A DNA stretch of 46,173 bases from a virus. Taxonomy: Duplodnaviria > Heunggongvirae > Uroviricota > Caudoviricetes. The notes under the pieces are model-generated. The model worked only from the letters and a program-made list of their open reading frames with translations, was not told the DNA's origin and did not search any database. The stretch covers positions 1 through 46,173 of IMG/VR virus record IMGVR_UViG_2778261505_000003; one strand, 5' to 3'. This document shows, piece after piece, positions 2,795-45,597 of the stretch. The position numbers and the translations under genes are program-made. Every line of letters begins with the position of its first letter. Position 1 is the stretch's first letter.

Positions 2795-5387
2795 TTGCAT
2801 ATTCCTTAGCCCAGCGGGGCAGTGATAACGTCTTAATAGCTGGCCATTCATCGGTATTGAGGCAGTCAGCCAGGGTTCGCAGATTGCGGTGATATTCCAG
2901 CTGACCTGCCAGTTTTGCTTCTTCGCCCATCATGAAAATTTCAACCGGATAACGTCCGCATTCAATAGTTGTGCTGGCAACCAGAAAAACGAAAGTTGGC
3001 TGCACTCCAAACTGTGCTTCATAACCGTCACTGTAGAATGCATCCTGAACGTGATAGCGGTAGTCGTAATAAGCTGTTTTGAATCGTTGAATATCCGCCG
3101 TAGTTTTCACGTCCATGATCCAGTGAAATTCAGGGATAATTTTGTCCGGACGGCACCGACACAAAATTCCTGTTTCAGGATCTTCCCAGTAAATTGATGA
3201 TTCAGCGTGTCCGGCGCTTTCAACAAGCCATTGCCCCAGCGGCAAAGCCATAACGCTTTGATACATGAGTTCAATTTTCCGGCCTTCTTCCGCAGTGATA
3301 ACCGTTTTTCCTGTGCTTGCGCATTCCATCAGAAACGCTTTCTCCTCTTCTTTTCCGGCGTTTGTACGGCGGTTAAATTCAGGTGCTACGATAAAGCGGT
3401 TACTGAATTCTTCCGGTTCAAGTACCCGGCAGTGGAAAGCGGTTCCTAAATCGAGCGTTTTTGTCTTTGTGGTGTCCACGGGGGCATTTTTACGCCACAA
3501 ATACAATGCCGGAGTATCAGCAATGTCATCGAGCTGAGACTTACTGACACCGGGACCCGCGTGGTAATTCTCATTCGAAATTCCGTAATAAATACCTGGC
3601 TCTATGTCTTCTACGATTACGGGATCTGCGACTTTGCCAGTTTCATCACTGCAATCGCGATGCGGATCGCTGCCAGCATTCTCATTGTGCGGATGTTCAG
3701 CGCCTTCCATTTCCTCCGGATCATTTTCCTTAGCTTCAACCTGACTCTCTTCATCGAATGTTTCCTGGTATGTTGCGTCGCCCATCACCGCACCACAGTC
3801 AGGGCAGTTATCCCCGCCAGTCTGGCCGCAGGCATTGCAGGCTATTTCCGGTTCCTGTTGCACTACTGGCTCAGGTTGATTCATATCCGGGCTGGTTTTT
3901 TCCGTTTCTGGCTGGTTCTGGTACACAGAATCGCGAGTCTGGATCCCCTTTACCCATTTCGGATCGTTCGGGTCGCTAATTCCGTCAACAAATTCACCAC
4001 GTGATGCAGCAAGCAATTTATTGGCATCGACAGGATTTTTTGATGGAATGTTTTTCCGGGCTTCATGGAGTTCTGCCCGCAGTTCCTGATATTTCGCATC
4101 AACAGAATTTACCTGTGACTGAGCATCCAGCGGCTGCGTGTCCTGATGATGTTCAGTTGCGTCCGGTTCCATTGTTTCAGTCTCTCCCTGTTCAACTGCC
4201 GTTGTTCCAGATGGTTGCGGTTTTTCTTCATCATCCTGTTTTCCTTCTTCTGTTACTCGCTGCGGCATCGGGGCAGAGGAGCGACCGCAGGCAATATCCA
4301 CGATTTCCGGATCAGGGTTGGCATGATCGGTTTCAGTCAGTACTTTGTTCAGATATTCAGTGACGTGCGCGGGGATGATCTCGATCCCAATTGGTGCTTC
4401 TTTTACGGACGCAACCACGATGGCGCGGGAATAATCCAGCCCGCCAGGCATGGTGATGAATTTGTCGCGGAAAACAGAAAAGGGCGGTTTATTTTCAGCG
4501 ATAATTTCCTCAATGCGTTTAGCGTGTGCCGGATGAATGTTATAGATGTCCAGATCCATTGAACGGGCCAGTACGCCAGTGGCTACGTCGCGCGCCAGTG
4601 ACGTCAGATCGTGTACGAAACCTTTGCCGCGATCGGTGAGGTTTCCGCCGCCAGCATTAGCACCGGAAGCCGTGCGAGTGATGTGTGAAACACGATTACC
4701 CTTCATCCACTCTTTTGTCAGCAGTCCTCGATCGGTGTAGTCAGCGTTCAGGTATGCTTCGAAAAAAGCAGTTATCAGTCCCAGGTTTGAATTACCAGGA
4801 TTAGGGAAAACTTTGTCAGTGTCACGAACCAGTTTGTGGAGATCGCGAATTTCCAGCGGGTCGAGCAGGCTGGTTTTGTGGGAAACAGCCAGGGCAGTAA
4901 CAGCCGGTAGTTCTTCAGCCCGAGCAATGTGTAATGCCTGGAGTCCGTCGCGTGAAACGTGCGTTACCGGTTTTTCGCTGCCGTGTTGAGCAAGCCAACG
5001 AATGGGCAGTTCCTGGCCAGAAATTGGGAGTAGCATATTCTCCTCAATCTCAGTCATGTCTTCGCCGTTGACGTTGGTATTGCCTTGATAGTGAGCGTTG
5101 TCTGGTGCTGCTCCCGGTTTTAGTTCCCATGTCATGGAGTCTTTGCTGAGTTGATAGCGTTCACTCCAGGTAAAATCGATCTCACCTTCAGCGGGCAGGT
5201 CATTAACGACAGGAAAATTCGTGGCAACAGCTTTAAAATAGCTGCTCAGTTTTTTACCTGACTTAACGATCAGGTAGTCCAGAGTGGCACAGGTCGATTC
5301 AAAATCGTCGCTTGCCCACAGGACGACGTCAGGTTCACCGGATGATTTTTTCGCTTTCCGTAACAGGAAGAGTGGTTTTGTGCTCAT
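2787..5387 (-). CDS. recE: RecE exonuclease VIII, 866 aa
   Basis: 866-aa ORF, same length as K-12 RecE; acidic N-terminal region and C-terminal nuclease domain directly upstream of recT. Confidence 0.88.
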
Positions 5388-5488
5388 TGTTTTTTAACCT
5401 CAACTCAGATTAAAATTCGTTTTGTTCAGTGAATGATCTTGCCGGATACACACTGTTCATAGCCTGCGCCATACGCAGGCTATTTCTT

Positions 5489-5764
5489 TCAGATTTCACC
5501 TTTTAATTTCATTGCAATTAGAGTTGCCAGAAATTCGGCTTTTTTTTCTGCGGGCAGATTCTTTCCGGTATGCACCAGGCACATTTTTTTGACACCTTCG
5601 TGAAGTGTTTTAACGTTGCCTGATGGACCGTCGATATCAACCACAGTGAATGGGGTTTCTTTATTTTCTGTTTTAATCACGTAGCCAATACGCTTTCCTT
5701 CCAGATTAACTTCGTGAACAATGTCATCAGTAGTTACAACAGTGGCTTCATAACTGGTAATCAT
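5489..5764 (-). CDS. racC: RacC, 91 aa from MITSYEATVV
   Basis: Translation matches recalled Rac RacC; position between recE and ydaE. Confidence 0.75.
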   Translation of the reverse strand: MITSYEATVVTTDDIVHEVNLEGKRIGYVIKTENKETPFTVVDIDGPSGNVKTLHEGVKKMCLVHTGKNLPAEKKAEFLATLIAMKLKGEI

Positions 5765-5838
5765 GTTTTTCTCCTTAATTAAGGTTGAGCGAATCCCTGC
5801 CATTGCTGGCATAAATTCAGTTTCGCATAGTCAGTTAA

Positions 5839-6009
5839 TTAAAGTTCGTGTGCCATCTGGTCTTTTTCGGCACATATTTCACTACAATATTTTTTCATTT
5901 CCGTCGTTGGGATAACTCCACGCATGAAATGAAGTGGTCTTTTAATGCTTTTGCTTTCTTTAACTTCTTTATCGCAAAGATGGTAAGCACATTTTATTTT
6001 CTTAGCCAT
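5839..6009 (-). CDS. ydaE: YdaE-like Cys-rich small protein, 56 aa ([16 protein letters not shown]...)
   Basis: Translated by hand from the minus strand (below the ORF-track size cut-off); start overlaps the kilR stop by 1 nt. Confidence 0.65.
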   Translation of the reverse strand: MAKKIKCAYHLCDKEVKESKSIKRPLHFMRGVIPTTEMKKYCSEICAEKDQMAHEL

Positions 6010-6230
6010 CACCATGACTCCGCCTTTACAGGTAAACCATCACGACCGAGGAAGACTTTAATCATGCAGTCAGTAATGCATGTTTTTGTGGTCAGGTTAC
6101 GAATATAAAGTTTTCGCTTTTTAATATTGTTTGCCGAGGCAATATATGTCCGGCCGTTATGAAGAATATAATCACCAGGAGTCACACACTGACGAGGTAT
6201 TTCATCAGTTCCGAAGTGATGAGCAATCAT
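6009..6230 (-). CDS. kilR: KilR cell-division inhibitor, 73 aa from [12 protein letters not shown]
   Basis: Translation matches recalled Rac KilR apart from a few substitutions. Confidence 0.8.
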
Positions 6231-6640
6231 AATTATCTCCATTTTCACAAATGAACTTTGTTGATGCGGTGCCTGGTGCCTCCAGGTGACGTTAACCAGT
6301 TAACAATTAACGCCGGATAATCCACCCATAACACTGATGCTTTTAACTGTTCCGCGTGCGCTTAGCCGCATTCACCGCATCACAAAATTCACTTTAAAAA
6401 GGGCGGACATCAGCCGAACTTCAAGAAAAAACTGATGCCGCCAAGACTACACACAGCAATGTCGTTATTTACAACCGGAGGCGCACTCCCACCATTTAAA
6501 TTTAACAGACAAGACCGACTCTTTATGGATATCGGAAATGCGCCTTCGTGTTGCGCCCAGTTTTATTTCACCACCTCCGGGCTTCGGTGGTTTCTGCTAT
6601 ACCCCTACAGCGAGAATATTGAATTAATCCAAATAATGGA

Positions 6641-7982: not shown

Positions 7983-8401
7983 AAATCAAGCATGAGCACA
8001 TCGAGTCAGTGTTGTTAGCCCTGGCAGCCGAAAAAGGGCAGGCATGGGTAGCCAATGCCATTACTGAAGAATATCTGCGCCAGGGGGGCGGCGAATTGCC
8101 CCTGGTACCAGGCAAGGACTGGAATAATCAGCAGAACATCTATCACCGTTGGTTAAAAGGTGAAACGGAAGCGCAAAGGGAAAAAATTCAGAAACTGATC
8201 CCTGCAATTCTGGCAATCCTTCCGCGCGAGCTGCGTCACCGACTCTGCATCTTCGATACCCTGGAACGCCGTGCATTACTGGCGGCGCAGGAAGCGTTAA
8301 GTACGGCAATTGATGCGCATGATGATGCAGTCCAGGCCGTTTACCGGAAAGCGCATTTCAGCGGCGGCGGGTCTTCCGACGATTCTGTCATTGTTCATTA
8401 A
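7979..8401 (+). CDS. ydaT: YdaT toxin-like protein, 140 aa
   Basis: 140-aa ORF overlapping the ydaS stop; matches recalled Rac YdaT in length and sequence. Confidence 0.8.
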   Translation: MKIKHEHIESVLLALAAEKGQAWVANAITEEYLRQGGGELPLVPGKDWNNQQNIYHRWLKGETEAQREKIQKLIPAILAILPRELRHRLCIFDTLERRALLAAQEALSTAIDAHDDAVQAVYRKAHFSGGGSSDDSVIVH

Positions 8402-8413
8402 GCAAAAGTTTCC

Positions 8414-9271
8414 ATGCTGTTTGTGCTTATTCTAAGCCACCGGGCAGCATCATACGGGGCAATTATGGCCGCATTACCATACATGCAACTGTACATAGCT
8501 GATTACCTGGCTGACACCATGCATTTGTCAGCAGAGGAGCATGGCGCGTATTTGTTGCTGATGTTCAATTACTGGCAAACAGGAAAGCCAATACCCAAAA
8601 ACAGGCTGGCAAAAATTGCCCGTCTGACTAACGAGCGATGGGCTGATGTTGAACCATCCTTGCGGGAGTTTTTTTGCGATAACGGCGAGGAATGGGTACA
8701 TCTTCGGATTGAGGAAGATCTGGCATCAGTCAGGGAAAAATTAACCAAAAAATCAGCCGCAGGAAAAGCATCTGTTCAGGCCAGAAGAAGCAGAAAGGAA
8801 GCAGATGTTCAAACAAAACAAGAGAGAAATTTAACAGGTGTTCAAACAGATGTTGAAGTGGTGTTTGAACATGATGTCAACACAAAGGCAACTAATAAAG
8901 ATACAGATAAAGATCTAAAAACAGCTCCCCCCCTAAATCCCCCCCGGGGGAATCGAGGTGTCAAAAAGTTTGACCCTCTGGATATTGCTTTGCCGAACTG
9001 GATTTCTGTCTCGCTTTGGCGTGAGTGGGTTGAATTTCGCCAGGCATTGCGTAAACCGATTCGAACGGAGCAGGGCGCTAACGGGGCGATACGGGAGCTG
9101 GAAAAATTCCGCCAGCAGGGTTTTTCACCTGAGCAGGTGATTCGACACAGCATCGCCAACGAATACCAGGGCTTGTTCGCGCCGAAAGGTGTTCGACCTG
9201 AGACGTTACTCCGACGGGTTAACACCGTTTCGTTACCGGACAGTGCGATCCCGCCAGGCTTCAGGGGGTAA
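8414..9271 (+). CDS. ydaU: YdaU-like replication protein (DUF1376-type), 285 aa
   Basis: 285-aa ORF in the lambda O position, same length as K-12 YdaU. Confidence 0.75.
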   Translation: MLFVLILSHRAASYGAIMAALPYMQLYIADYLADTMHLSAEEHGAYLLLMFNYWQTGKPIPKNRLAKIARLTNERWADVEPSLREFFCDNGEEWVHLRIEEDLASVREKLTKKSAAGKASVQARRSRKEADVQTKQERNLTGVQTDVEVVFEHDVNTKATNKDTDKDLKTAPPLNPPRGNRGVKKFDPLDIALPNWISVSLWREWVEFRQALRKPIRTEQGANGAIRELEKFRQQGFSPEQVIRHSIANEYQGLFAPKGVRPETLLRRVNTVSLPDSAIPPGFRG

Positions 9272-9277
9272 CTGACC

Positions 9278-10024
9278 ATGAAAAATATTGCGACAGGCGG
9301 CGTTCTTGAACGTATCCGCAGACTGGCCCCGTCACATGTAACCGCGCCATTCAAGACGGTAGCGGAGTGGCGTGAGTGGCAACTTTCCGAAGGCCAGAAA
9401 CGTTGTGAGGAGATCAACCGTCAGAATCGTCAGTTGCGGGTGGAAAAAATTCTGAATCGCTCTGGCATCCAGCCATTGCACCGCAAATGCTCGTTTGCGA
9501 ATTACCAGGTGCAGAACGACGGTCAGCGATATGCGTTGAACCAGGCGAAATCTATCGCTGATGAACTGATGACCGGGTGTACAAATTTTGCGTTCAGCGG
9601 AAAACCTGGTACCGGAAAAAACCATCTGGCGGCGGCTATCGGGAATCGCCTGCTGAAAGATGGCCAGACAGTGATTGTGGTTACCGTGGCTGATGTCATG
9701 AGTGCTCTACACGCTAGCTATGACGACGGGCAATCAGGCGAAAAATTTTTGCGGGAACTGTGCCAAGTGGATCTGCTGGTTCTTGATGAAATTGGCATTC
9801 AGCGCGAGACAAAAAACGAGCAGGTGGTGCTGCACCAGATTGTTGATCGCCGGACAGCGTCGATGCGCAGCGTGGGGATGCTGACAAACCTGAACTATGA
9901 GGCCATGAAAACATTGCTCGGCGAGAGGATTATGGATCGCATGACCATGAACGGCGGGCGATGGGTGAATTTTAACTGGGAGAGCTGGCGTCCGAATGTC
10001 GTCCAGCTAGGAATTGCGAAGTGA
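9278..10024 (+). CDS. ydaV: DnaC/IstB-like AAA+ helicase loader (YdaV)
   Basis: Walker A motif [15 protein letters not shown] and Walker B LLVLDEIG; occupies the lambda P position. Confidence 0.85.
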
Positions 10025-10046
10025 TTTTTACCGGGAGGAAATTTTA

Positions 10047-10808
10047 ATGGAAACCGTTTTTGATGCACTGAAAGCAATGGGAAAAGCCACGTCGGTAGAA
10101 CTGGCTGCGCGACTTGATATCAGTCGTGAAGAAGTGCTGAACGAGCTGTGGGAACTGAAAAAGGCTGGATTCGTTGATAAAAGCGTATACACCTGGCGTG
10201 TGGCCGATAACAACGTTCAGCAGGAACATCCAGTGCCGGAAGAACAGCCGGAAGAAATCGCCACAGCAACAGTGACGAAAATATCGGAGTGCGATTTAAC
10301 CGCGACGATTGAACAACGTGGTCCACTAACTGCGGATGAACTGGCTACGTTGTTCGGTACCACATCACGCAAAGTGGCTTCAACGCTGGCAATGGCAATC
10401 AGCAAGGGGCGTCTGATTCGCGTAAATCAGAACGGTAAATTTCGTTACTGCATGCCGGGCGATAATTTACCAGCAGAACCGAAAGCTGCATTGGTAACGA
10501 AAAATGATGGTAAAGCCTTTCCTCAGCCAGCCGGTGCTGCGTTACCAGTACAGGAAGCGGCAACACAGGAAGATATTAAAACAGAAACTGTGGCGGACAT
10601 TGTGCAGTCGCTGCCATCGTTTACTGAAACGCAAGCGGATGACTTGGTTTTACCATCGCTGCATATAGCAAACCGCGAACTGCGTCGGGCGAAAAATCAT
10701 GTCCAGAAGTGGGAGCGTGTCTGCGCCGCGCTGCGGGAGCTGAACAAGCACCGGGATATTGTTCGACAGATTGTCGATTCCTCCAGTCGTATTGTGTCGG
10801 AAAAGTGA
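10047..10808 (+). CDS. Hypothetical protein with N-terminal winged-helix-like region, in the position of Rac ydaW (apparently intact here)
   Basis: GGGAGGAA RBS followed by ATG at 10047; ORF follows ydaV directly. Confidence 0.5.
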
Positions 10809-10823
10809 TTGCCGGAGGCGCTT

Positions 10824-11246
10824 ATGGCAAAAGTTTTTACACAGGAAGAGCGTGAAAAAATTAAGGAGCAGGTTGTTGAGCTGGTACGCCAGAGTGGGCG
10901 CGAGACGTTAAGGCAACTGGAGGCCAAGACAGGGGCGACAAGATATCTGATGAGCATTCTTGCCAGAGAGTTGGTTGCCAGTGGCGATGTATACAACTCT
11001 GGCTATGGGTTATTTACCTCTGAACAGGCTCGTAAGGACTGGAATAACGCCCGCAAAAAACTATCCAGGGCAAAGGTGAAAAAAACGGTTGTGGTTGATC
11101 CTGACCTTATCTGGTCATTACCAGACGGAGAAATACGCCGATATGACGGGCGTCTGAATATAATCTGTAGCGAGTGCCGTAAGAGCGAAGTTATGAAGCG
11201 TGTACTGATGTTTTATCGAGGAAGTATCCAGGAATTTATTCGGTAA
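10824..11246 (+). CDS. Hypothetical protein (about 140 aa), last gene of the early rightward operon
   Basis: GGAGG RBS 6 nt upstream of the ATG at 10824; protein-like composition; no family recognised. Confidence 0.45.
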   Translation: MAKVFTQEEREKIKEQVVELVRQSGRETLRQLEAKTGATRYLMSILARELVASGDVYNSGYGLFTSEQARKDWNNARKKLSRAKVKKTVVVDPDLIWSLPDGEIRRYDGRLNIICSECRKSEVMKRVLMFYRGSIQEFIR

Positions 11247-11382
11247 GCAAAATCAAAATGTAATCGCTCAAGTTTAAGTTGGTGTATCTACGGCGCAGAG
11301 CCATCGCCTCATCTGGCACTGCGCTAAAATCAAATTTAGTTCCACTCTTTATTTCGTATCTGCTAAAACGCTACATAAAATT

Positions 11383-11655
11383 TTACTTTTTTAAAGAATA
11401 AGGGAATATGTGCACCATATTGGAGGCTAGTGGATATATTCCTATGCTACGAGTTGTCTTTTTTAGTTGATCTATGCTTGCTTCTTTATCGGGAGCCCGG
11501 CCTCCCCACACTGTAACTCCCTCAGGTATATCGATTGGGCGACTTTTGTTTTCATCTGTGATTTCAATCGTTTCCCCATTATTAAGCGTAATAATCAACG
11601 ATGACACGTCCAGGTGTTGTGTATTCCCATTTTTATTTTTAATGTCTATTTTCAT
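11383..11655 (-). CDS. Hypothetical 90-aa protein (AT-rich cargo)
   Basis: ORF in low-GC DNA, divergent from the QueH-like gene; no TM segment or recognisable motif. Confidence 0.4.
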   Translation of the reverse strand: MKIDIKNKNGNTQHLDVSSLIITLNNGETIEITDENKSRPIDIPEGVTVWGGRAPDKEASIDQLKKTTRSIGIYPLASNMVHIFPYSLKK

Positions 11656-11925
11656 GGCTATTTCATTATATGTTATCTGTGCTGGAGTAATAAGTTTACA
11701 GTATTAAGAAGCATTTTGACGAAACAATCAACTGACTTATCAGCTAAGGTGGCATTGTAATGCGATCTGATTGGTATCATCAGGACGCTGTTCAAAAAAG
11801 GGGGATTAGTTGATCTTGAAATCTTGCTCAAAATGTGTAGCCTCTCGTTTAACTGCCAACTTTTTGGGGCAGTACACTCTGATGCTACACAACTTGCAAG
11901 TTTCATTACCCCGACGTAAACATTT

Positions 11926-12594
11926 ATGACAGTTGCTGATTTCAAACGTCCTAAGTTGGAGCTCCCAAACGGGGCAAACAAACTACTATTACACTCTTGT
12001 TGTGCACCATGTTCCGGTGAAGTGATGGAGGCTCTTCAGACCTCAGGAATCGACTACACCATCTTCTTCTATAATCCGAACATTCATCCTCAGAAAGAGT
12101 ATATGATTCGTAAGAATGAGAATATTCGATTTGCTGAACAACATGGTGTACCGTTTATCGATGCTGATTACGACACTGACAACTGGTTTGAGCGAGCCAA
12201 AGGAATGGAATGGGAGCCCGAACGTGGGAGGCGTTGTACTATGTGTTTTGACATGCGTTTTGAACGGACGGCGCTGTACGCCGCTGAAAATGGTTTCAGT
12301 GTGATCAGCAGTTCACTGGGCATTTCACGCTGGAAAAATATGCAGCAGGTTAACGACAGCGGACGGCGAGCTGTCGCACATTATCCGGGCATGGTGTACT
12401 GGGATTATAACTGGCGCAAGCAGGGAGGCTCGTCCCGCATGATTGAAATCAGCAAACGCGAACAATTCTATCAGCAGGAATATTGTGGTTGCGTGTATTC
12501 ACTTCGCGATACCAATTTACACCGCAAATCCCAGGGACGCCCTCTTATCAAAATTGGTCAACTCCACTACGGTAAAGAAGAAGGGCAGGAATGA
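11926..12594 (+). CDS. queH: DUF208/QueH-like protein (putative epoxyqueuosine reductase), 222 aa
   Basis: N-terminal [11 protein letters not shown] motif and downstream Cys residues (CTMC, CGC) characteristic of the QueH family; located in the AT-rich cargo island. Confidence 0.65.
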
Positions 12595-12903
12595 TTTTTA
12601 CATTACGTCAACAGAGTGTCACAACGTTTCTATATATGGTATGCCGACCGTAATTTTCGAATCATCATGACTAATAGGCAGGTCACCTATGCCAGCAATG
12701 ACCTGCTCATCTTGAAATTAGCAGAAATCTTGTAGCTATGATGTAGCTCAAAATAGTTTTTCATTCTTTTACCTGATGTCTGTTCCTGGCTGAAAACAGA
12801 CTGTATTATTTGATTACGCACCACTGACACTTGTGTATTGAAGTAGTGAGTACAAAGCCACATATTTATCAGTGTATGTATACGTCAAAAACAGGAGATT
12901 GTT

Positions 12904-12993
12904 GTGCTGGTTCTGAAGTGTGCGTTAGCAATAGTGGCTGTGGTGGCAATTTATTGCCTTGTTGTTGTTCTTATGGAGCGACTTTCTGATTGA
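12904..12993 (+). CDS. Candidate 29-codon ORF encoding a hydrophobic single-TM peptide (type I toxin-like); unverified
   Basis: AGGAGA RBS 5 nt upstream of a GTG; translation VLVLKCALAIVAVVAIYCLVVVLMERLSD has a hydrophobic core and a charged C-terminal tail. Confidence 0.25.
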   Translation: MLVLKCALAIVAVVAIYCLVVVLMERLSD

Positions 12994-13206
12994 TTACATA
13001 CTGGCTAAAAAAAAGCGTTTGCCTGGCTTATCTTTGTCCGGCAAGGTGCGCTCATTAATCTGAAGTAAATTTATTTCTTAAGTATTCAGATTACTTCTTA
13101 TGGTCGAAGTCTCCTGGCAATGTAGAACCAAAATATTTACAAAAACGAGACCCGTCGAGGATAGCTCTGCCGGGTCTGATTGTTAAAGTATTTTTAATAT
13201 GATCAT

Positions 13207-13551
13207 CTATTTTTTGGTGCTATAGACTTTTTCGCCTGAGAAGTCTGGAGCGACCCAAAAGTTAATATTAAACTGAGCATCATCGCTTAGTTCAACACGG
13301 TGCCAGTATTGTGGTGGGCTTGTTGCAAAAGAGCCAGCATTAATAACTACTTTTATCTCTGGTTCAGTAGTATTCTCATCAGCAAAACCATAATATGTTA
13401 CAGTGCCTTCCATTACGCACAACTGCCCAAAAACACCTGCTGCTGTATTATGATGTGTTAATAACGCTGAAGGTACGTTCTCTTTTGTGAAGAACGGAGT
13501 TGAGCGTTTGATTACCCAATCTTTAGGAATTCTCTTGTGTGTCATAACCAC
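13207..13551 (-). CDS. YeaR/DUF1971-like protein (TehB N-terminal-like beta-barrel), 114 aa
   Basis: Pattern RSTPFF...YYGFADE...FNINFWVAPD resembles the recalled E. coli YeaR; AT-rich context. Family call is from memory only. Confidence 0.45.
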   Translation of the reverse strand: MVMTHKRIPKDWVIKRSTPFFTKENVPSALLTHHNTAAGVFGQLCVMEGTVTYYGFADENTTEPEIKVVINAGSFATSPPQYWHRVELSDDAQFNINFWVAPDFSGEKVYSTKK

Positions 13552-14416
13552 CTCCTATAAAACATGTATTATAAATGCACCTTTTGAGGAGTTATGTCAA
13601 GCTCTTATGAAACACATAATTGATATGTTGATTAGAGGAGAAGATAGAATAAATATGGTTGTTTTTCGTATAACTACTTGTTTTGCTTTTGGTTTATGCA
13701 TTCTGTGTGTTAGGAATAAGTTATTAAAGCTTAATCAAGAAATCTCGATGTATTCCACATAGATTACTGTTACTGAACCTTATTGTGTGCATTAGTTGTG
13801 TTCTGAAATTTCAGCTTAATTATTTATGATATATTTTTTAACGATAAATATTTTTCCAGGTAAAAGACAGTTGGGAATAAGATAAGTAATATATCATTAA
13901 TCTTGATTATTCCCAGGGTACCTTTACTGTGCATATAAATAAATCATATATGCATCAAATAATGTAAAGGCATCCTTTTAGATATGTCTTATCAAATGTT
14001 AATGACTTGAGTGGGAAACATGATTCCAGCAACTTATCATGTGGCTACTTTATAAAAATAATGCCCATATAAAACAACAAGCGAAAAGGATTACGGATAA
14101 AAAAGGAGCGAGATGTGCAAACTTGTTATTTTCCATGTTTAACCACCTTAAATAATTGATGATGACGGGATGATTGCATCTGTAATGCTTTTATTGAAAT
14201 GTTATGATAAAAAAGAACTTTTTCATAACATTAAAATGTAATTTAGCTAATCGTTTTTAATAATAAGTGTCGTATTTCTATCCTTGTACCAGCTATTTGA
14301 TATGTAGTGTTTGTTCATGCTATGTGGGGCTTTACACCATAGCCAGTTTATTTATACTTTATTCGTCAGCCTGAACAACTGGCATCTGCTGCACTGCGCC
14401 ATAGAGAGATTGAGAA

Positions 14417-15016
14417 ATGGCGCATATACAACTGGTCAAACAAACTTCTTCTGGTTTACTTCTCCCGGCGACGCCGGAGAGTTGTGATTTTCTGCATCAA
14501 ATTAAAATAGGCGAGTGGATACACGCTGATTTTAAGCGTGTGCGTAACTACGCATTCCACAAGCGTTTTTTCAAACTCCTGCAACTGGGATTCGATTACT
14601 GGACTCCGGTCGGTGGGGCGATCACGCCTCGCGAACGAGAACTGCTGTCTGGTTTCGTTGATTACCTGTGCGAATCAGTTGGTCGGGAACACACGCCAGC
14701 CCTGAGTGATGCCGCAGAGCAATACCTGAATACAGTTGCGACACGCAGAACCCGGGATACGGCATTGCTAAAGTCGTTTGAGGCTTTTCGCGAGTGGGTA
14801 ACCATTCAGGCTGGATTTTACACCGAACATTTTTATCCGGACGGTAGCCATGGGCGTCGGGCGAAATCCATAGCTTTTGCGAATATGGACGAAACCGAGT
14901 TTCAGCAGGTTTATAAATCTGTTCTGAATGTGCTGTGGAACTGGATTCTGTTCCGTAAATTTTCCTCTCTGGAACAAGTCGAAAATGTGGCCGCGCAGCT
15001 GCTGGAGTTTGCGTAA
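14417..15016 (+). CDS. YbcN/DUF1367-like nin-region protein
   Basis: 199-aa ORF immediately upstream of, and translationally coupled (TAATG) to, the YbcO-like gene, as in the DLP12 nin region. Confidence 0.45.
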   Translation: MAHIQLVKQTSSGLLLPATPESCDFLHQIKIGEWIHADFKRVRNYAFHKRFFKLLQLGFDYWTPVGGAITPRERELLSGFVDYLCESVGREHTPALSDAAEQYLNTVATRRTRDTALLKSFEAFREWVTIQAGFYTEHFYPDGSHGRRAKSIAFANMDETEFQQVYKSVLNVLWNWILFRKFSSLEQVENVAAQLLEFA

Positions 15017-15306
15017 TGGTGGATTTACGTAAAGCGGCGCGGGGGCAGATGTGCACCGTCAGAATTCCTGGCTACTGCAATCACGATCCGGAAACGTCTG
15101 TGCTGGCGCATTACCGACTGGCGGGAACGTGCGGAACAGCGACAAAACCACACGATATGCAGGCGGCGATTGCCTGTAGCTCATGCCACGATCTAATCGA
15201 CGGGCGGGTAAAAACCAGCGATTACACCAAAGAAGAATTACGCCTGATGCATGCAGAAGGTGTTTTTCGCACACAAGAAATCTGGAGAAAGGAGGGATAT
15301 TTGTGA
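15016..15306 (+). CDS. ybcO: YbcO/DUF1364-like putative nuclease, 96 aa
   Basis: 96 aa with conserved Cys/His pattern (CTVRIPGYCNHDPETSVLAHYRL...CSSCHD) as recalled for DLP12 YbcO. Confidence 0.6.
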   Translation: MVDLRKAARGQMCTVRIPGYCNHDPETSVLAHYRLAGTCGTATKPHDMQAAIACSSCHDLIDGRVKTSDYTKEELRLMHAEGVFRTQEIWRKEGYL

Positions 15307-15845
15307 TTTACCCAACGAATACAGGAAAAAGCGGAGAACACCTTCGTCTCGCCACGCTGGAAAGTGTCTGGATTCAGGGCAAACTGCGTATGTGGGGGCG
15401 CTGGTCGTATATTGGCGGTGGCAGGTCAGGAAATATGTTCAATCAGTTGTTGGCATCCAAAAAATTGACGAAAACAGCCATCAATGAAGCCCTGCGCAGA
15501 ATGAAAAAAGCGGGAATAGAGAAAGCTGAGCTGGAAGCGTTTTTGAGAGAGATGATCAACGGCAAGCAAAAGAGCTGGCTGGCGCATTGTACTGATGCAG
15601 AGGCGTTATGTATTGATCGAGTCATAAGTGAGGTGCTGGCAGAGCATCCAGGATTGATTAGCGTCCTTCGGCAACGGTATGAGGGGCGGGGGATGACCAA
15701 ACGCAAAATGGCTGAATTGCTAAATGATGCACACCCAGAGTGGTGTTTTAGCACATGCGAAAAGCGAATTGCTAATTGGTTGGCCGTTGCTGAGTATGCG
15801 CTATACATTCCCATGCGAGAATTATTCGCTCAAAAAACGGCTTGA
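15303..15845 (+). CDS. Late-gene antiterminator Q-like protein (GTG start)
   Basis: AGGAGG RBS then GTG overlapping the ybcO stop (GTGA); sits directly upstream of a promoter-terminator pair, tRNAs and the lysis cassette. Family assigned from position and size. Confidence 0.55.
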   Translation: MIYPTNTGKSGEHLRLATLESVWIQGKLRMWGRWSYIGGGRSGNMFNQLLASKKLTKTAINEALRRMKKAGIEKAELEAFLREMINGKQKSWLAHCTDAEALCIDRVISEVLAEHPGLISVLRQRYEGRGMTKRKMAELLNDAHPEWCFSTCEKRIANWLAVAEYALYIPMRELFAQKTA

Positions 15846-15876
15846 TTTTTTACGCATAAACTGCTTCAATTTTGCT
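15842..15876 (+). promoter_or_regulatory. Candidate late promoter pR'
   Basis: TTGATT, 17-nt spacer, TTCAAT immediately after the Q stop; weak match, positional inference. Confidence 0.3.
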
Positions 15877-15930
15877 ACGCTTCGCAAAGCTGTATCGCGT
15901 GGCGAATCAGGCGCAATTAAACTTTAATAG

Positions 15931-15960
15931 AACCCGCATCGAGCGGGTTTTGTTGTTTTT
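15931..15960 (+). terminator. Rho-independent terminator (tR'-like)
   Basis: Hairpin AACCCGC-atcga-GCGGGTT followed by TTGTTGTTTTT. Confidence 0.55.
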
Positions 15961-16197
15961 GTGGTGTGATATAAGAAACGACATTTAATAATTGCCTTCA
16001 AAATAAATTTGTTTATATATTGTCGCGTATATTTTAAATGAAGGTGAAATGTTCACATAAAATAAAAATACATAAATAAATTTACATAACTTGACGCAAA
16101 GTGTTGTTGCGATTGGAATATTAAATCGTATTATCGAAAACGGTTCTGAGGGGGAACTCTTCTTTGATCGGTGATATCGCTCCCCTGAAGAACCAAT

Positions 16198-16272
<75 letters not shown>

Positions 16273-16275
16273 TAT

Positions 16276-16350
<75 letters not shown>

Positions 16351-39609: not shown

Positions 39610-42000
39610 GTGGATATGGCAGCAGTAAAACTCTCAGGTGTGCTGAAAGACGGTGCAGGAAAACCAATACAGAACTGCACTATTCAACTGAAGGCAAAGC
39701 GTAACAGCACCACGGTACTGGTGAACACGGTGGCCTCTGAAAATCCTGATGAAGCCGGGCGTTACAGCATGGATGTTGAGTATGGCCAGTACAGCGTCAC
39801 CCTGCTGGTTGAAGGTTTTCCGCCTTCACATGCCGGGACCATTACCGTCTATGAAGGCTCCAGACCAGGTACGCTGAATGATTTTCTCGGTGCCATGACG
39901 GAAGATGATGTCATGCCGGAGGCATTGCGCCGTTTTGAGGCAATGGTGGAAGAAGCGGCACGCAACGCCGAAGCCGCCTCTCAGAGCGCAGCGTCGGCAA
40001 AGAAATCCGAAACTGCAGCGGCATCATCGAAGAACGCGGCGAAAACCTCAGAAACGAATGCAGCTAACAGCGCACAGGCGGCAGCGACCTCACAGATTGC
40101 ATCGGCAAACTCCGCGACAGCAGCCAAAAAATCAGAAACCAACGCGAAAAACAGCGAGACAGCCGCAAAGACGAGCGAAACCAACGCAAAGTCCAGCCAG
40201 ACGGCAGCGAAGACCAGCGAAACGAATGCCAAAGCCAGTGAAACTGCGGCAAAAAACAGCCAGGTTGCAGCAGCCCAAAGCGAGAGCGCGGCAGCCGGTT
40301 CTGCGACTTCAGCAGCTGGATCAGCAACTGCTGCGGCTAACAGCCAGAAAGCTGCGAAGACGAGTGAAACTAACGCAAAGTCCAGCCAGACGGCAGCGAA
40401 GACCAGCGAAACGAATGCCAAAGCCAGCGAAACTGCGGCGAAAAGCAGTCAGGATGCAGCAGCCGAAAGCGAGAGTGCTGCAGCTGGTTCTGCAAGCGCG
40501 GCGGCTGCTTCTGCCACTGCATCAGCTAACAGCCAAAAAGCAGCAAAAGCCAGTGAAACCAATGCAAAGACAAGTGAGACTGCAGCGGCGAACTCGGCGC
40601 AAGCATCGGCAGCAAGCCAGACAGCAGCTAAAGCAAGTGAGGATGCAGCCAGAGAGTACGCAAGCCAGGCAGCAGAACCGTATAAATATGTCTTACAGCC
40701 GCTTCCCGATGTGTGGATACCGTTTAACGATTCACTGGATATGATTACGGGCTTTTCGCCATCATATAAAAAGATTGTTATTGGTGACGATGAAATAACA
40801 ATGCCTGGCGACAAGATTGTAAAGTTTAAACGCGCATCAAAAGCAACTTACATTAATAAATCTGGTGTGCTGACAGAGGCTGCAATCGATGAACCTCGCT
40901 TTGAAAAGTATGGATTGCTGATTGAAGGACAGCGTACAAACCTGTTAATAAACAGCACAAATCCATCAAAGTGGAACAAGTCATCAAATATGATTTTAAA
41001 TACATCAGGTGTAGATGATTTTGGTTTCCAGTACGCAAAATTCACATTAAAACCAGAAATGGTGGGGCAAACCTCAGCCATTTCTATTGTCACAGTATCT
41101 GGAAGCAAAGGATATAATGTTACTGGCGATGAAAAGTATGTAACTATCTCATGCAGGGTACAAAGTGGGACTCCAAATTTAAGATGTCGATTACGATTTG
41201 AAGAATATGATGGATCTACCTACAAATTCCTGGGTGATGCTTACTTAAATATGACAGATTTATCGATTGATAAAACTGGCGGCGCTGCAAGTCGTATTAC
41301 TGCAAGGGCTATTAAAAATGAAGCAAGCAAATGGATTTTCTTTGAGGCAACAATTAAGGCACTTGATACAGAAAATATGATCGGTGCGATGGTGCAATAT
41401 GCACCACCAAAAGGGGGAAGCACTGGTGCAGATGATTATATTTATGTTGCAACTCCTCAGGTCGAAGGCGGTTCGTGCGCTTCTTCGTTTATTATTACTG
41501 AGGCAACGCCAGTCACAAGAGCCAGTGATATGGTGAATATACCAACAAATAACAATATCGGTACACCACCTTTAACATTTTTAGCTGAAGTTCATACAAA
41601 CTGGAACGAAACGCCAAATGCAGCACCACGAGTTTTTGATACCAGTGGTGGGAGTACAACTCCGGGGCAATATATAAGTGTTGCTATCAGTTCAACATTA
41701 TTTCCTGGTGTTACGATGTATAATAAAAACGGTAGTACAGTAGCCGCCGTATCGCCAGTATTATTTGAACAAAAATCTGTTCTTGGATTTGTTTTAAATG
41801 AATCTGGTAATGTGCATTTCGTTAGCAATGCCCAGCATGGGACTCCTAAAACCACGGATCATGTCGGTGTTAAATCTGGTTATTTCTTCAGGATTGGGGG
41901 ACAGACTAATAGCGGTCTACGTCATCTTTTCGGTCACATTCGTAATTTTCGTATATGGCATAAAGAATTAACCGATGCACAAATGGGAGAGGTAATATAA
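39610..42000 (+). CDS. stf: Side tail fibre (Stf): lambda-like N-terminus, SETNA-type repeat shaft, AT-rich C-terminal LamG/concanavalin-like domain
   Basis: First roughly 120 aa match recalled lambda Stf; Ala/Ser-rich repeats (KTSETNAKSSQTAAK); C-terminal end GHIRNFRIWHKELTDAQMGEVI resembles the LamG_3 motif; GC drops after about 40700. Confidence 0.8.
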   Translation: MDMAAVKLSGVLKDGAGKPIQNCTIQLKAKRNSTTVLVNTVASENPDEAGRYSMDVEYGQYSVTLLVEGFPPSHAGTITVYEGSRPGTLNDFLGAMTEDDVMPEALRRFEAMVEEAARNAEAASQSAASAKKSETAAASSKNAAKTSETNAANSAQAAATSQIASANSATAAKKSETNAKNSETAAKTSETNAKSSQTAAKTSETNAKASETAAKNSQVAAAQSESAAAGSATSAAGSATAAANSQKAAKTSETNAKSSQTAAKTSETNAKASETAAKSSQDAAAESESAAAGSASAAAASATASANSQKAAKASETNAKTSETAAANSAQASAASQTAAKASEDAAREYASQAAEPYKYVLQPLPDVWIPFNDSLDMITGFSPSYKKIVIGDDEITMPGDKIVKFKRASKATYINKSGVLTEAAIDEPRFEKYGLLIEGQRTNLLINSTNPSKWNKSSNMILNTSGVDDFGFQYAKFTLKPEMVGQTSAISIVTVSGSKGYNVTGDEKYVTISCRVQSGTPNLRCRLRFEEYDGSTYKFLGDAYLNMTDLSIDKTGGAASRITARAIKNEASKWIFFEATIKALDTENMIGAMVQYAPPKGGSTGADDYIYVATPQVEGGSCASSFIITEATPVTRASDMVNIPTNNNIGTPPLTFLAEVHTNWNETPNAAPRVFDTSGGSTTPGQYISVAISSTLFPGVTMYNKNGSTVAAVSPVLFEQKSVLGFVLNESGNVHFVSNAQHGTPKTTDHVGVKSGYFFRIGGQTNSGLRHLFGHIRNFRIWHKELTDAQMGEVI

Positions 42001-42281
42001 TGCGAGACTTAATTATCAAATTCACAGACAAGGCCGACTTTTCGGCCTTTATGGAGAGTATTGGCTATTATGATGACGAGTCGATGCAGGGTGATATTCT
42101 TATTGACGTGATAGGTAACGTGTACAAAGAAACCGGAGAACTGACTGAAGATGGCGAACCGGTATGTGTTAAGGAGGACGGATATTTTGTAAACGTGCGC
42201 ATCATTAATGATGCAAAAAAATCGTCAATATTCGATAAATACGCGATTGTTGTTGAGCATCAACTTCGTGGCTGGATGTGA
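42000..42281 (+). CDS. Hypothetical 93-aa protein translationally coupled to stf (possible fibre chaperone)
   Basis: TAATG overlap with the stf stop; acidic small protein; no similarity to lambda Tfa noticed. Confidence 0.4.
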   Translation: MRDLIIKFTDKADFSAFMESIGYYDDESMQGDILIDVIGNVYKETGELTEDGEPVCVKEDGYFVNVRIINDAKKSSIFDKYAIVVEHQLRGWM

Positions 42282-42290
42282 GGGAGACAA

Positions 42291-42995
42291 ATGGCTACAT
42301 CGACAGTAATTCCAGGAGACATCACCACGTTAAAGGGAGATGTCAGTAAAGCCAAGGAAGATATTTCCTCAATTAACGGAAAAGTATCAACGCTTCAGAC
42401 TGATATGACCAGTGCAAAGCAGGATATCAGCACCAGATACACAAAAACTGAAGTTGATAATAAGCTGAAAAACAAAGTGGAAGTGAACGATCTGGAAAGT
42501 GGTCGTTATGGTGGAGATTTTTACCCGCTGACTGGTCGTGAAGCGTTTTATTTGTGGGGATTGGGCACGACTACAGCGGCGGCAAACCTTTATCTTAATC
42601 CTGACCCCGCAATTTCGTCTGTACTGCGGTCCACATCGTCTATCCGCTATAAACATTCAGTAGAGACGATAGATTCGGAGCACGCCGATCTCATTTTCAA
42701 GATGCGCCCTGTGTGGTACAGGTCGCAATGCGAAAATGACAGGCGCGATTGGGGATTCTATGGATTGATTGCCGAGGAAGTAGGAGAAATTGCCCCTCAG
42801 TTTGTTCACTGGCGACCAGCTAACGAGAATGATGCTCCTGAAGCTATTTCCAGCAATGGCCTTGTTGCCGAAGGTGTAATGTACGAACGTCTGGTTGTTC
42901 CACTGATTCACCATATCCAGAAACTGACTGAAAGAGTTGATGAACTTGAGTCAGAATTAAAGTTGTTATCAACTTCCCGAAGCGATATCGGATAA
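42291..42995 (+). CDS. Tail-fibre-like protein with C-terminal intramolecular chaperone (peptidase S74-like) domain
   Basis: N-terminal coiled-coil-like segment; C-terminal SIRYKHSVETI...GFYGLIAEEVGEIAPQFV...LTERVDELESELKLL resembles the endosialidase chaperone domain. Confidence 0.5.
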   Translation: MATSTVIPGDITTLKGDVSKAKEDISSINGKVSTLQTDMTSAKQDISTRYTKTEVDNKLKNKVEVNDLESGRYGGDFYPLTGREAFYLWGLGTTTAAANLYLNPDPAISSVLRSTSSIRYKHSVETIDSEHADLIFKMRPVWYRSQCENDRRDWGFYGLIAEEVGEIAPQFVHWRPANENDAPEAISSNGLVAEGVMYERLVVPLIHHIQKLTERVDELESELKLLSTSRSDIG

Positions 42996-43005
42996 AGGAG
43001 GAGTA

Positions 43006-43299
43006 ATGGATATAACACCTTTCCTTCATGCACTTTGTGCTGTGGCTGCGCAGGTACTGGTTGGTCTTTTTACCGGAAACTGGGCTTACGGGGCGATAGC
43101 CGGTTGTACGTTCTTCATTGCTCGTGAACATACCCAGGCAGAATATCGCTGGATTGAAATGTTCGGGCATGGCAAGCGAATGAATATGCCGTGGTGGGGC
43201 GGTTTTGATCCGCGCGCGTGGGATGTAGCAAGTCTGATGGATTTTGCTGTGCCGGTGGTGGCGTGTCTGCTGGTCTGGCTGTTGGTTAATCGTGGGTGA
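43006..43299 (+). CDS. Hypothetical small membrane protein (two predicted TM segments)
   Basis: 97-aa ORF with hydrophobic N- and C-terminal helices and a Trp-rich middle; function unknown. Confidence 0.4.
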   Translation: MDITPFLHALCAVAAQVLVGLFTGNWAYGAIAGCTFFIAREHTQAEYRWIEMFGHGKRMNMPWWGGFDPRAWDVASLMDFAVPVVACLLVWLLVNRG

Positions 43300-43309
43300 A
43301 AAAAGGTGA

Positions 43310-43435
43310 GCTGTATATGCAACGGAGGAAGAAACCTCGTTGCTGGAAGCCTGGAAGAAGTATCGGGTGTTGCTGAACCGTGTGGACACTTCCGTAGCAC
43401 CAGATATCGAGTGGCCAGCTGCACCTATAGGGTAA
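43310..43435 (+). pseudogene. 3' remnant of a tail fibre assembly (tfa) gene
   Basis: Open frame ...[35 protein letters not shown] resembles the conserved C-terminus of Tfa chaperones; no start codon or upstream body. Confidence 0.4.
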
Positions 43436-43632
43436 AAATATAGTTCTATATGGGAGCGCTATTTTTACAATATAAATGCTGAACGGAAGAATCTAACCAG
43501 TTACAAAAAACATAGTTATGTAATCCAGTTGCCTGGGCATGCGTGTGATGTTGATAGCTATTACTGTATCTTCCGTTCACTTATCTTATTGTGAACAGTT
43601 ATAAATAATTTGATCTGCTCTTATTCAGCCTG

Positions 43633-44835
43633 CTAGGCTGCTGTAAATCTTCGATACTTTCTTAACATAAAGATCATGATTAGAATAATTGAAAGTAAGT
43701 AAACAATCCAAATGGTGATATTTCGTTCAATTAAAAAGCTACCAATTCCGCCGATCACTGAAGGAATCACCAGAGAAGCGGCCCCCATTAACGCAGATGT
43801 GGCACCCAGACTGGTACGTTGGCTGGACATAGTTAGATAAGTATAAAGTGATTCGAACATACCTCCGGCAAACATCAAAATAATGAAGAATAATATAAAG
43901 ACATTGACATGATGAACGAATGTTATTAGCGGAGTGCACAATACGATAAATGAAGCAATGAGCTTCAGCCATAAACTCAAAATTTGTGGTGCAGACCGCT
44001 TCTTAAGTAGTTTACCTGATAGTGCTGCTCCCAGCAGAAGGAATCCTCCAATAATTGATGAGATAACACCAAATTGCGTAGATGAGTATCCATACTTAAC
44101 CATCAAAATAAATGGGGAAGCTGTGACATAACAATAAATTAGAGAGAATGAAAGTCCAAGAGAAAGGCAAGGTAGATAAAATCTTGGTTGCTTACTTATC
44201 TCTTTGTACGTAAGAAATGATGATTTTAGTGAATATGTAATCCGTTTTTTATGACTGAGTGTTTCAGGGAAGTTAAAATAGACATACGTTAATGTTACAA
44301 CAGAATATCCTAATATCATTAGAAAAATTGCACGCCATCCCCATACATCATTAATTATTCCTCCCAGCAGTGGAGAAGCAATAGGCACGACACCTTCAAT
44401 AGTTATGATAATAGCGTACAGTGTAGCAGCCACTGAACCGCGTGTTACATCACGAACAGCACTAATTGCTGTAACCAGAGTTATTGATATAGAAAGCCCC
44501 TGTATGATGCGTATTGTAAGAAACGTACCCAATCCGGTCGAGAGTGTGAGGCAATATGTTGTCACACAATAAATAATAGCACCTGAAAGCATAATTCTTC
44601 GACGACCAATAGAATCAGATAATGGGCCAAAAATTAGCTGTCCAAAACCTATGCAAAGGGTATAAACCATGATAGACAATTGCATGGACGGGATGTTTTG
44701 TCTAAATTCTTTTGCGATGTCAGGAATTGAAGGCAAATAAGTGTCCACACCTAGAATGCCCATAATAGTCAGCAGCGATAGGCCAATAGTAAAGAAAAGT
44801 ATATTCTTTCTGTGAATAACAGCTTGTGATTTCAT
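43633..44835 (-). CDS. MFS transporter (Bcr/CflA-like drug:H+ antiporter type), 400 aa, AT-rich
   Basis: Twelve predicted TM segments; MFS signature GRRRIMLSG between TM2 and TM3; markedly lower GC than the flanking phage genes. Confidence 0.8.
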   Translation of the reverse strand: MKSQAVIHRKNILFFTIGLSLLTIMGILGVDTYLPSIPDIAKEFRQNIPSMQLSIMVYTLCIGFGQLIFGPLSDSIGRRRIMLSGAIIYCVTTYCLTLSTGLGTFLTIRIIQGLSISITLVTAISAVRDVTRGSVAATLYAIIITIEGVVPIASPLLGGIINDVWGWRAIFLMILGYSVVTLTYVYFNFPETLSHKKRITYSLKSSFLTYKEISKQPRFYLPCLSLGLSFSLIYCYVTASPFILMVKYGYSSTQFGVISSIIGGFLLLGAALSGKLLKKRSAPQILSLWLKLIASFIVLCTPLITFVHHVNVFILFFIILMFAGGMFESLYTYLTMSSQRTSLGATSALMGAASLVIPSVIGGIGSFLIERNITIWIVYLLSIILIMIFMLRKYRRFTAA

Positions 44836-45188
44836 TATTTATCACCATGAATAAATTAAAAGAATGAAAAAAACTCCATTTAAATGGAAGGAGGTGGATA
44901 ATTATCGTGTAGGCAATACAACAGAGTTGAAAAGAACTGTCAAACTTTTAACTCAAAAAAGTGAGATGTGAATCACAGACATAAAAATCATCTTTTTCAG
45001 TCCTATGGTTCAGTTAAATTTGATTGTTATCGTACGAAGGTTTGAACGTGTGTGTGCGTATGCGGTATTTTTTCTTGCGAGTGCCGGAGTTATGAGAACG
45101 TTGTATTAACCTTCATAATCTGACCTATTCAATTGATTCCAGTACACCAATGGGTATTTTGGTGTTATGGTATGTGACTCCAAATAAA

Positions 45189-45410: not shown

Positions 45411-45597
45411 TCGTTGTATGCAAAAACGTGCTGCGGCTAACTGGTGAACTTTCGATAGTGCGGGTATTGAATGATTTCTAGGCGTTATCGATTTTACGTA
45501 TTTTTTGCATGATAGAATTCGTACCTCCTCCCAACGACCTTCCATGGCTTTCCGGACTTCTGTAGGCCGGCGGACGATGCTGTCCTCGGATGTTGTG

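Follow-up and report, generated by a model that had tools for sequence, protein, structure and literature searches.

Lambdoid phages carry morons, of which bor and lom of lambda and gp15 of HK97 are examples, and P2/P4 prophages hold defense hotspots (reportedly described by Rousset et al. in 2022). Such morons and hotspots have an atypical GC content, usually a promoter and terminator of their own, opposite orientation to the flanking operon, and patchy presence in syntenic prophages. We describe here a locus of this kind, an accessory island of about 3.2 kb at positions 11,250–14,416 of the IMG/VR virus record IMGVR_UViG_2778261505_000003. The whole analyzed stretch (46,173 bp, hereafter the window) corresponds to a complete Rac-like lambdoid prophage, inserted beside ttcA. 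The island holds a gene for a 90-aa orphan protein, a QueH gene, a 29-aa transmembrane micro-ORF (open reading frame), and a gene with a DUF1971 domain. As a type of feature it is ordinary, a prophage moron hotspot; unlike in the described examples, its cargo is mainly metabolic or stress-related.

The genes of the island, too, have described relatives. The hok/sok-type locus of hokD (relF) in Qin-like prophages occupies the same slot position as the window's cargo. Epoxyqueuosine reductase QueH (DUF208) was reportedly studied by Zallot et al. in 2017; E. coli carries queG and has no de novo synthesis of vitamin B12. STM1808, according to what the 2012 study of Karlinsey et al. is said to have found, is a zinc protein that needs His32 and His82 and confers nitric oxide (NO) resistance, and its gene presumably lies between dsbB and ycgN in Salmonella enterica Typhimurium. 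Of the two epoxyqueuosine reductases, that encoded by queG depends on cobalamin and that encoded by queH does not (PMC11906303). In two papers that mention it, PMC7527575 and PMC7082413, STM1808 is described as a member of the NsrR regulon that plays a part in virulence (each cites Karlinsey et al. 2012). A tehB homologue has been predicted as an NsrR target in enterobacteria (PMC1274295), and NsrR also targets the chromosomal yeaR (PMC5320621).

We read the island as the moron slot of a Rac/Qin-type prophage, in which four circulating modules sit beside the leader of the nin/Q operon and the cargo would convert host physiology and not serve defense. We put the probability of this reading at roughly two in three.

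A variable slot with interchangeable modules

A preliminary description, made from the letters alone, had noted a low-GC stretch of ~3.2 kb between the early operon and the Q genes, and the composition bears this out. GC content is 0.383 within the island versus 0.501 to its left (8000–11,249) and 0.485 to its right (14,417–16,000). Equally low values occur in just 0.26% of all 3167-bp segments across the 46 kb, and the segment with the minimum starts at 11,201. The description had also placed a deletion of K-12 Rac in this area; in K-12, a truncated DUF1627 gene (ydaW) does abut rzpR.

Genome counts given here and below come from searches of 5426 complete E. coli genomes. By megablast, some part of the island occurs in 1817 of them, and the whole 3.2-kb arrangement in only 43. 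BLAST alignments break at about 11,877, 12,598, 12,834, 13,005, 13,206, and 14,049, and the modules so delimited differ widely in frequency: 43 genomes for the 90-aa module (all at ≥99% identity), 995 for the QueH module, up to 1903 for the micro-ORF module, and 457 for the DUF1971 module. These distributions indicate that the island is not a single unit; it is made of at least four independently distributed modules and a conserved regulatory leader. A single co-inherited system was ruled out, as the module distributions lie ~40-fold apart. Of the island as first described, then, the accessory character, the atypical composition, and the absence from K-12 Rac all stand, and its unity does not. 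Its right-hand limit at 14,416 also has to be withdrawn, because the last ~370 bp (14,049–14,416) are the conserved leader of the DUF1367 operon and contain no cargo. The island does not behave as lambdoid core, given that the full arrangement is confined to 43 genomes and that only this leader is conserved with the DUF1367 operon.

Variation at this position, which the preliminary description had proposed checking by BLASTN, turned out to be high among related prophages. The DUF977 gene lies ahead of the variable slot in every related prophage examined, and between it and the nin/Q genes we found at least eight different cargos. Strains 042 and ST131 carry QueH with hokD, and O157:H7 carries QueH with an NgoMIV-type restriction–modification system; at locus L003 (6900–8910), Dcm and an NgoMIV-type restriction–modification system fill the slot. 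BL21 has the micro-ORF and hokD alone. In HannyBb, an isolated phage, QueH is followed by the micro-ORF and then by hok/mok. In one further E. coli prophage the defense gene PD-T7-1 (E = 2.4e-145; L009, 2282–3496) precedes the micro-ORF and hokD; in another, two hypothetical genes precede the micro-ORF and the DUF1971 gene. E. coli E118 has a KilA-N/BstA-like gene (E = 3.2e-21; L007, 3496–4266), a truncated Hok, and the DUF1971 gene. Its hokD is cut to 41 aa exactly at the start of the DUF1971 module (L007, 4789–4914), which shows that this module entered a hokD locus by illegitimate recombination. Because the same slot holds hokD, PD-T7-1, a BstA-like gene, or a restriction–modification system elsewhere, these comparisons lead us to conclude that the DUF977-to-nin/Q interval is a genuine cargo (moron) hotspot, its occupancy varying between conserved flanking genes. 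We know of no earlier description of the slot from DUF977 to DUF1367/DUF968, or of its repertoire, as a hotspot.

A separate observation concerns the slot of E. coli HS13-1 (L008, 1773–3749; the pair is also present in L005), which is filled by two unassigned genes. The 320-aa protein has a weak HEPN_RES_NTD1 match and the 333-aa protein a weak GNAT match, and neither matches PADLOC. We regard the two as a candidate for an unrecognized defense pair.

An STM1808-like gene with a predicted NsrR operator

The DUF1971 gene had been called YeaR-like. The shared domain is confirmed, but the protein is much nearer to the STM1808/3DL3 subgroup (E = 2.8e-59 for PDB 3DL3, 'TehB', a Vibrio fischeri protein, versus E = 3.3e-25 for YeaR, 3BB6), so we call it STM1808-like. 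His32 and His82 are conserved in it, within the motifs THHNT and QYWHRVE. With one genome sampled per species, relatives of 75%–83% identity turned up at 79 loci in other species, among them members of Kluyvera, Leclercia, Citrobacter, Klebsiella, Raoultella, S. enterica diarizonae, Vibrio, and Photobacterium. The ortholog of S. enterica diarizonae (79% identity) sits between dsbB and ycgN, and so does that of Klebsiella oxytoca. The corresponding locus of K-12 holds umuDC-hlyE and no DUF1971 ortholog. Since the window's gene is located in a prophage and K-12 has umuDC-hlyE at the dsbB–ycgN locus, the genomic positions indicate that it is a xenolog of STM1808 and not its positional ortholog.

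We scored NsrR sites with a matrix built from 26 distinct 11-1-11 site sequences of E. coli CFT073 (PMC5320621, Table 4). The predicted operator of the DUF1971 gene reaches 25.7 bits, which would rank third among these 26 known sites; no other site in the 46 kb exceeds 13.5, and when the AT-rich 865 bp upstream of the gene were shuffled 2000 times, a score of 25.7 was never reached. The operator lies 15 nt upstream of the start codon and overlaps a TATAAT hexamer (13,568–13,573), with a Shine-Dalgarno sequence AGGAGG at 13,551–13,556 and a TTGACA hexamer at 13,595–13,600. Counting sites of at least 15 bits, we found an NsrR site in 54 of 80 orthologous loci, at 18.3–30.4 bits and 15–43 nt (mostly 15–27) upstream of the start, with no other site above ~14 bits in these 54. 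They comprise two Photobacterium loci and all but one of the 53 enterobacterial loci (52; the remaining one, from a Leclercia, has a best score of 12.2); 25 of the 27 loci from Vibrio, Photobacterium, Shewanella, and related marine bacteria have no NsrR site at that position. Diverged prophage copies retain the site, at 20.7–28.6 bits.

Homology between prophage and chromosomes is limited to 13,209–13,587, an interval that takes in the coding sequence with its Shine-Dalgarno site and operator. The prophage gene thus resembles STM1808 in its DUF1971 domain, in both histidines, and in an NsrR 11-1-11 operator just upstream of the start, and differs from it in lying outside dsbB–ycgN and in having phage-side AT-rich sequence upstream of the operator. 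With YeaR, encoded in the yeaR-yoaG operon, it shares the domain and the place among NsrR targets, the latter by prediction. Unlike YeaR, of which it is a distant paralog, it has no yoaG beside it, a terminator-like hairpin standing there instead (13,130–13,206 on the minus strand folds at −16.9 kcal/mol, z = −2.9), and no significant NarL 7-2-7 site. Upstream of the gene, the best matches for NarL, FNR, CRP, Fur, IHF, and LexA were no better than expected by chance; for NarL, which alone was scanned across the window, 28 sites with three or fewer mismatches were found.

Among the marine orthologs, four loci (L081, L087, L093, and L094, from Neptunomonas, Parendozoicomonas, and Vibrio) lack an NsrR site directly upstream and have one of 20–24 bits elsewhere in the 6-kb locus. 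In those genomes the gene may sit inside an NsrR-regulated operon.

The 865-bp AT-rich region upstream of the DUF1971 gene (13,552–14,416), also noted in the preliminary description, has a GC content of 30.8% up to the start of DUF1367 and contains no conserved ORF. In its spacer portion (13,588–14,048), stops or indels interrupt the majority of candidate small ORFs in relatives of 89%–96% identity. Across the AT-rich DNA, ORFs of 91, 36, 38, and 35 aa are broken in relatives, a 58-aa ORF has no match in the compared loci, and a 102-aa ORF has a partial match only. A 34-aa ORF is intact, its few differences mostly amino-acid-changing. Speculatively, the spacer may be an H-NS target.

A prophage-borne QueH

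The divergent pair of a 90-aa ORF and a QueH-like gene had been recognized from the letters, and both genes are where they had been placed. The QueH protein matches PF02677 at 221.5 bits (cut-off 23.5) over profile positions 1–174 of 175, and PHROGs lists its family as 'unknown function'. Aligned to Thermotoga maritima QueH (7LC5), it keeps all metal-center cysteine motifs (CCAPC, CxxC, and CGC, as hsCCAPC, rrCtmC, and yCGCvyS). Compared with phage HannyBb, protein identity is 96.4% and DNA identity 86.5%, so that purifying selection is evident. The likeness to described QueH proteins thus extends over the full length of the Pfam profile; unlike them, it is carried by a prophage whose host already has the B12-dependent QueG, and its activity and any benefit to the host are predictions from family and motifs.

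A conserved 29-residue membrane protein

The toxin-like micro-ORF proposed between QueH and the DUF1971 gene is present and encodes 29 aa from a GTG start codon with AGGAG 6 nt upstream. The peptide has one predicted transmembrane helix and a short acidic tail (grand average of hydropathy 2.06; 3.07 in a 19-residue window). Its ~170-bp module, counted above, occurs in genomes where PGAP leaves the ORF unannotated, and those sources that do annotate it say just 'putative membrane protein' or 'hypothetical'. Among 118 copies on viral contigs, 117 encode exactly 29 aa, in 21 protein variants, and the Shine-Dalgarno site is retained. Six alleles differ mostly by synonymous or conservative changes, with dN/dS ~0.1 for the window allele against the others. 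Upstream, where the window's own promoter allele was read by eye, the −10 hexamer CATATT keeps one and the same distance in 37 of the 38 different upstream versions and the −35 hexamer TTGAA(T/G) in 30 of 37, around a spacer that takes 15 different sequences, all of them 17 nt long. Invariant hexamers around a variable spacer are the footprint of a real promoter, and the conservation as a whole indicates that the micro-ORF is a true gene, maintained by selection and equipped with a promoter.

The feature that follows the micro-ORF is hokD in 101 of the 118 viral-contig copies and DUF1971-type sequence in nine. The micro-ORF normally ends ~40 nt upstream of the 5′ end of the hokD mRNA. The hokD locus differs from ours in that the micro-ORF has no Hok similarity, mok-like frame, or Sok-like RNA, and in that the window has the DUF1971 module in place of hokD. 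Searches of Pfam, NCBIfam, PHROGs, and PADLOC matched it to no toxin model, whether Hok, Ldr, Ibs, Fst, or another. A tblastn search against phages returned nothing, possibly through the low-complexity filter of BLAST, and a literature search for the peptide string returned one unrelated paper only. Most likely the peptide is a small protein that acts at the membrane, in the manner of a toxin or by regulating a membrane protein; possible roles are those of a toxin, an exclusion factor, or a small membrane regulator.

An orphan gene

The 90-aa protein has no Pfam, PHROG, PADLOC, or PDB match, and a PDB profile search returned nothing below E = 0.38. Its family is small and found in Enterobacteriaceae, at 61%–94% identity; in Enterobacter and Citrobacter the gene is chromosomal and stands alone. 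An AlphaFold2 model (pLDDT 48.6, from an alignment of 10 sequences) is too poor for a fold search. A profile search of 1.8 billion representatives added further homologs of 80–110 aa and tandem-duplicated forms of 160–210 aa (proteins P0047–P0110). Residues ~16–45 match a motif of ~25 residues, of which giant LapA/BapA-prefix/HCBP_related adhesins carry up to 29 copies; the resemblance hints at a fold and says nothing on function. Our best reading of this gene is that of a recent passenger.

Proposed conversion of host physiology and its alternatives

In the reading we favor, illegitimate recombination would have stacked four circulating modules between the replication module, which ends in DUF977, and the nin/Q module, which begins with DUF1367. 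The DUF1971 gene would have been captured from an enterobacterial chromosome as a coding sequence with its Shine-Dalgarno site and NsrR operator. In a lysogen, host NsrR bound over the −10 region would repress it and NO would derepress it, giving E. coli a nitrosative-stress protein missing from its core genome. The operator is there and is conserved; repression, induction, and a phenotype would be its expected consequences. There is good sequence evidence for the operator, −10 element, and terminator of the DUF1971 gene, which would suit a moron transcribed on its own, and likewise for the promoter of the micro-ORF. QueH, in turn, would carry out the cobalamin-free reduction of epoxyqueuosine to queuosine in host tRNA as a backup for QueG, and would so make the last step of tRNA queuosine synthesis B12-independent in carriers of the prophage. 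The identifiable cargo points to conversion of host physiology more than to defense or counter-defense.

Several results weigh against this reading. For two of the four genes no function could be assigned, and these might serve defense; the slot of relatives does carry defense genes. The promoter of the DUF1971 gene is odd, in that its perfect TTGACA and TATAAT hexamers stand an unusual 21 nt apart and the −35 is only a candidate. A promoter scan detected no signals of their own for QueH or the 90-aa gene, and QueH lacks a recognizable promoter and a strong Shine-Dalgarno site alike; it may be made only in lytic growth, from the early operon, and not in the lysogen. The prophage has no GUN-anticodon tRNA, which weakens the case for QueH: its tRNA-Thr(UGU) and tRNA-Gly(UCC), at 16,198–16,350 downstream from the Q-like gene, are neither of them of the queuosine type. 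A codon-usage rationale for QueH was considered and dropped, the NAU fraction of the prophage being an ordinary 0.58.

Defense is the function that the preliminary description had expected of islands like this one, together with host modulation. The expectation is borne out for relatives, in which the slot does hold defense genes, and not for the window, where none of the six island ORFs matches any PADLOC-DB 2.0 family at E values up to 0.1. An unrecognized defense or counter-defense function could still take the form of the 90-aa/QueH pair, of a membrane-effector peptide acting in abortive infection or superinfection exclusion, or of QueH altering anticodons targeted by nucleases. The company of hokD, PD-T7-1, a BstA-like gene, and restriction–modification genes in this slot would favor it, as would the two genes without known function and a micro-ORF that almost always lies beside hokD and whose product is as small and hydrophobic as membrane toxins are. 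Set against this, the modules are distributed independently and hence are not one system, the 90-aa gene stands alone on chromosomes of other genera, QueH with all its catalytic cysteine motifs resembles an ordinary enzyme, and the DUF1971 gene is tied to NO sensing and not to infection. We consider defense distinctly unlikely. A narrower proposal, in which the micro-ORF would encode the toxin part of a novel type I toxin–antitoxin system stabilizing the prophage, draws on the transmembrane helix with its acidic tail, the strong Shine-Dalgarno site, the conserved promoter, the purifying selection, and the place at or beside hokD. We take it seriously and nevertheless think it improbable: no toxin family matches, the module contains no Rfam antitoxin RNA and, by eye, no conserved antisense promoter, the sequence past the stop codon differs between contexts, and the structure of the mRNA is ordinary (z = −0.8; −0.2 for the region after QueH).

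The island might also be decaying, H-NS-silenced foreign DNA without current function, left behind by recombination. A GC content down to 0.30, 460 nt of non-coding AT-rich DNA, the messy illegitimate recombination that truncated hokD in E118, and the loss of the whole area from K-12 Rac at no obvious cost are what such decay would predict. All four ORFs are intact and conserved, however; QueH keeps its protein sequence while its DNA diverges, the micro-ORF is under selection and intact in all copies but one, the 90-aa family is conserved across genera, and the NsrR operator persists in diverged prophage copies. We judge decay very improbable.

Conversion of host physiology thus remains our preferred reading, and a broader claim can be attached to it tentatively. 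This prophage family may plug genes into host regulons: an NsrR-controlled NO-resistance gene of the STM1808 type in ~8% of E. coli strains, QueH for B12-free tRNA queuosine in ~18%, and, on a module present in up to ~35%, a 29-aa toxin or exclusion factor coupled to hokD. In that general form we find the claim doubtful. If it were true, a widespread prophage family would alter how E. coli lysogens cope with host-derived NO, and a virulence-linked type of Salmonella gene would be phage-borne and run by the host's own NO sensor, a clean case of capture of a moron with its operator; the same family would free a tRNA modification from vitamin B12. The NsrR-wired STM1808-type prophage gene, the widespread prophage QueH, and the 29-aa membrane protein, which is conserved and has a promoter of its own yet goes unannotated, all appear to be unreported. 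Standard annotation misses this last protein in about a third of E. coli genomes, and the DUF977-to-nin/Q interval, with its PD-T7-1, BstA-like, restriction–modification, and hok cargos, is a practical place to mine for defense genes. None of these findings overturns current ideas.

Coordinates, leader, and further features of the prophage

The features of the slot and its borders are collected in Table 1. The prophage of E. coli SCU-109 is an annotated copy of the window at 99.9% identity, with the gene order intR, xisR, ralR, recT, recE, kilR, repressor and cro-like genes, ydaT, ydaU, ydaV, DUF1627, DUF977, a hypothetical gene, QueH, DUF1971, DUF1367, DUF1364, DUF1133, tRNA-Thr, tRNA-Gly, lysis, terminase, and head genes.

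Table 1. Features of the cargo slot and its borders (window coordinates)
Feature	Position	Strand	Evidence or remarks
DUF977 gene, at the conserved end of the early-right (replication) operon; left slot border	10809..11246	+	PF06163, E = 8e-29
Module A (90-aa module)	~11250-11877
90-aa orphan gene	11383..11655	-	module A
Module B (QueH module)	~11877-12598
QueH, cobalamin-independent epoxyqueuosine reductase family	11926..12594	+	PF02677, E = 1e-65; phrog_3217
Perfect hairpin	12678-12706
Predicted sigma70-type promoter of micro-ORF	12838..12866	+	-35 TTGAAG (12838-12843), 17-nt spacer, -10 CATATT (12861-12866)
29-aa transmembrane micro-ORF	12904..12993	+	MLVLKCALAIVAVVAIYCLVVVLMERLSD; GTG start; AGGAG 12893-12897
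Perfect hairpin	13056-13093
Intrinsic-terminator-like hairpin after DUF1971 gene	13147..13178	-	CAGACCCG...CGGGUCUC, then GUUUUUG; fold
Module D (DUF1971 module)	~13206-14048
DUF1971 gene, STM1808-like, 112 aa from ATG at 13545 (longer ORF to 13551)	13207..13545	-	PF09313, E = 2.7e-26
Predicted NsrR 11-1-11 operator	13561..13583	-	AAGGTGCATTTATAATACATGTT (gene strand); matrix score 25.7 bits
AT-rich non-coding spacer of DUF1971 module	13588..14048	.	GC ~0.30
Perfect hairpin	13872-13915
Leader/promoter region of DUF1367-DUF1364-DUF1133 operon	14049..14416	+	conserved ~76-100%
Perfect hairpin in leader	14198-14232		10 bp, longest
Promoter-like TTTACA-16-TATACT	14331-14358	+	promoter scan; best such site of region
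Perfect hairpin, DUF1367 start codon in 3' arm	14395-14424		8 bp; TGCGCCAT/ATGGCGCA
DUF1367 gene, first gene of nin/Q module; right slot border	14417..15016	+	PF07105, E = 5.9e-96; annotation of identical prophage

Upstream of DUF1367, the leader of the nin/Q operon is conserved behind hokD and behind DUF1971 alike, and its final ~90 nt are nearly invariant. Where the preliminary description had one perfect hairpin in the island, several occur. The 8-bp hairpin over the DUF1367 start codon may, judging from its position, provide translational control of the nin/Q operon.

An Rfam scan of the window found RalA and the two tRNAs, and no RNA family inside the island at gathering or permissive thresholds. 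RalA (220 bits), the antitoxin small RNA of the RalR/RalA type I toxin–antitoxin system, maps near the prophage's left end, at 1557–1735. Low-GC stretches (0.36–0.44) are also found at positions 1–2500, 5000–6500, and 40,500–45,500 of the window, and these may be further cargo sites.

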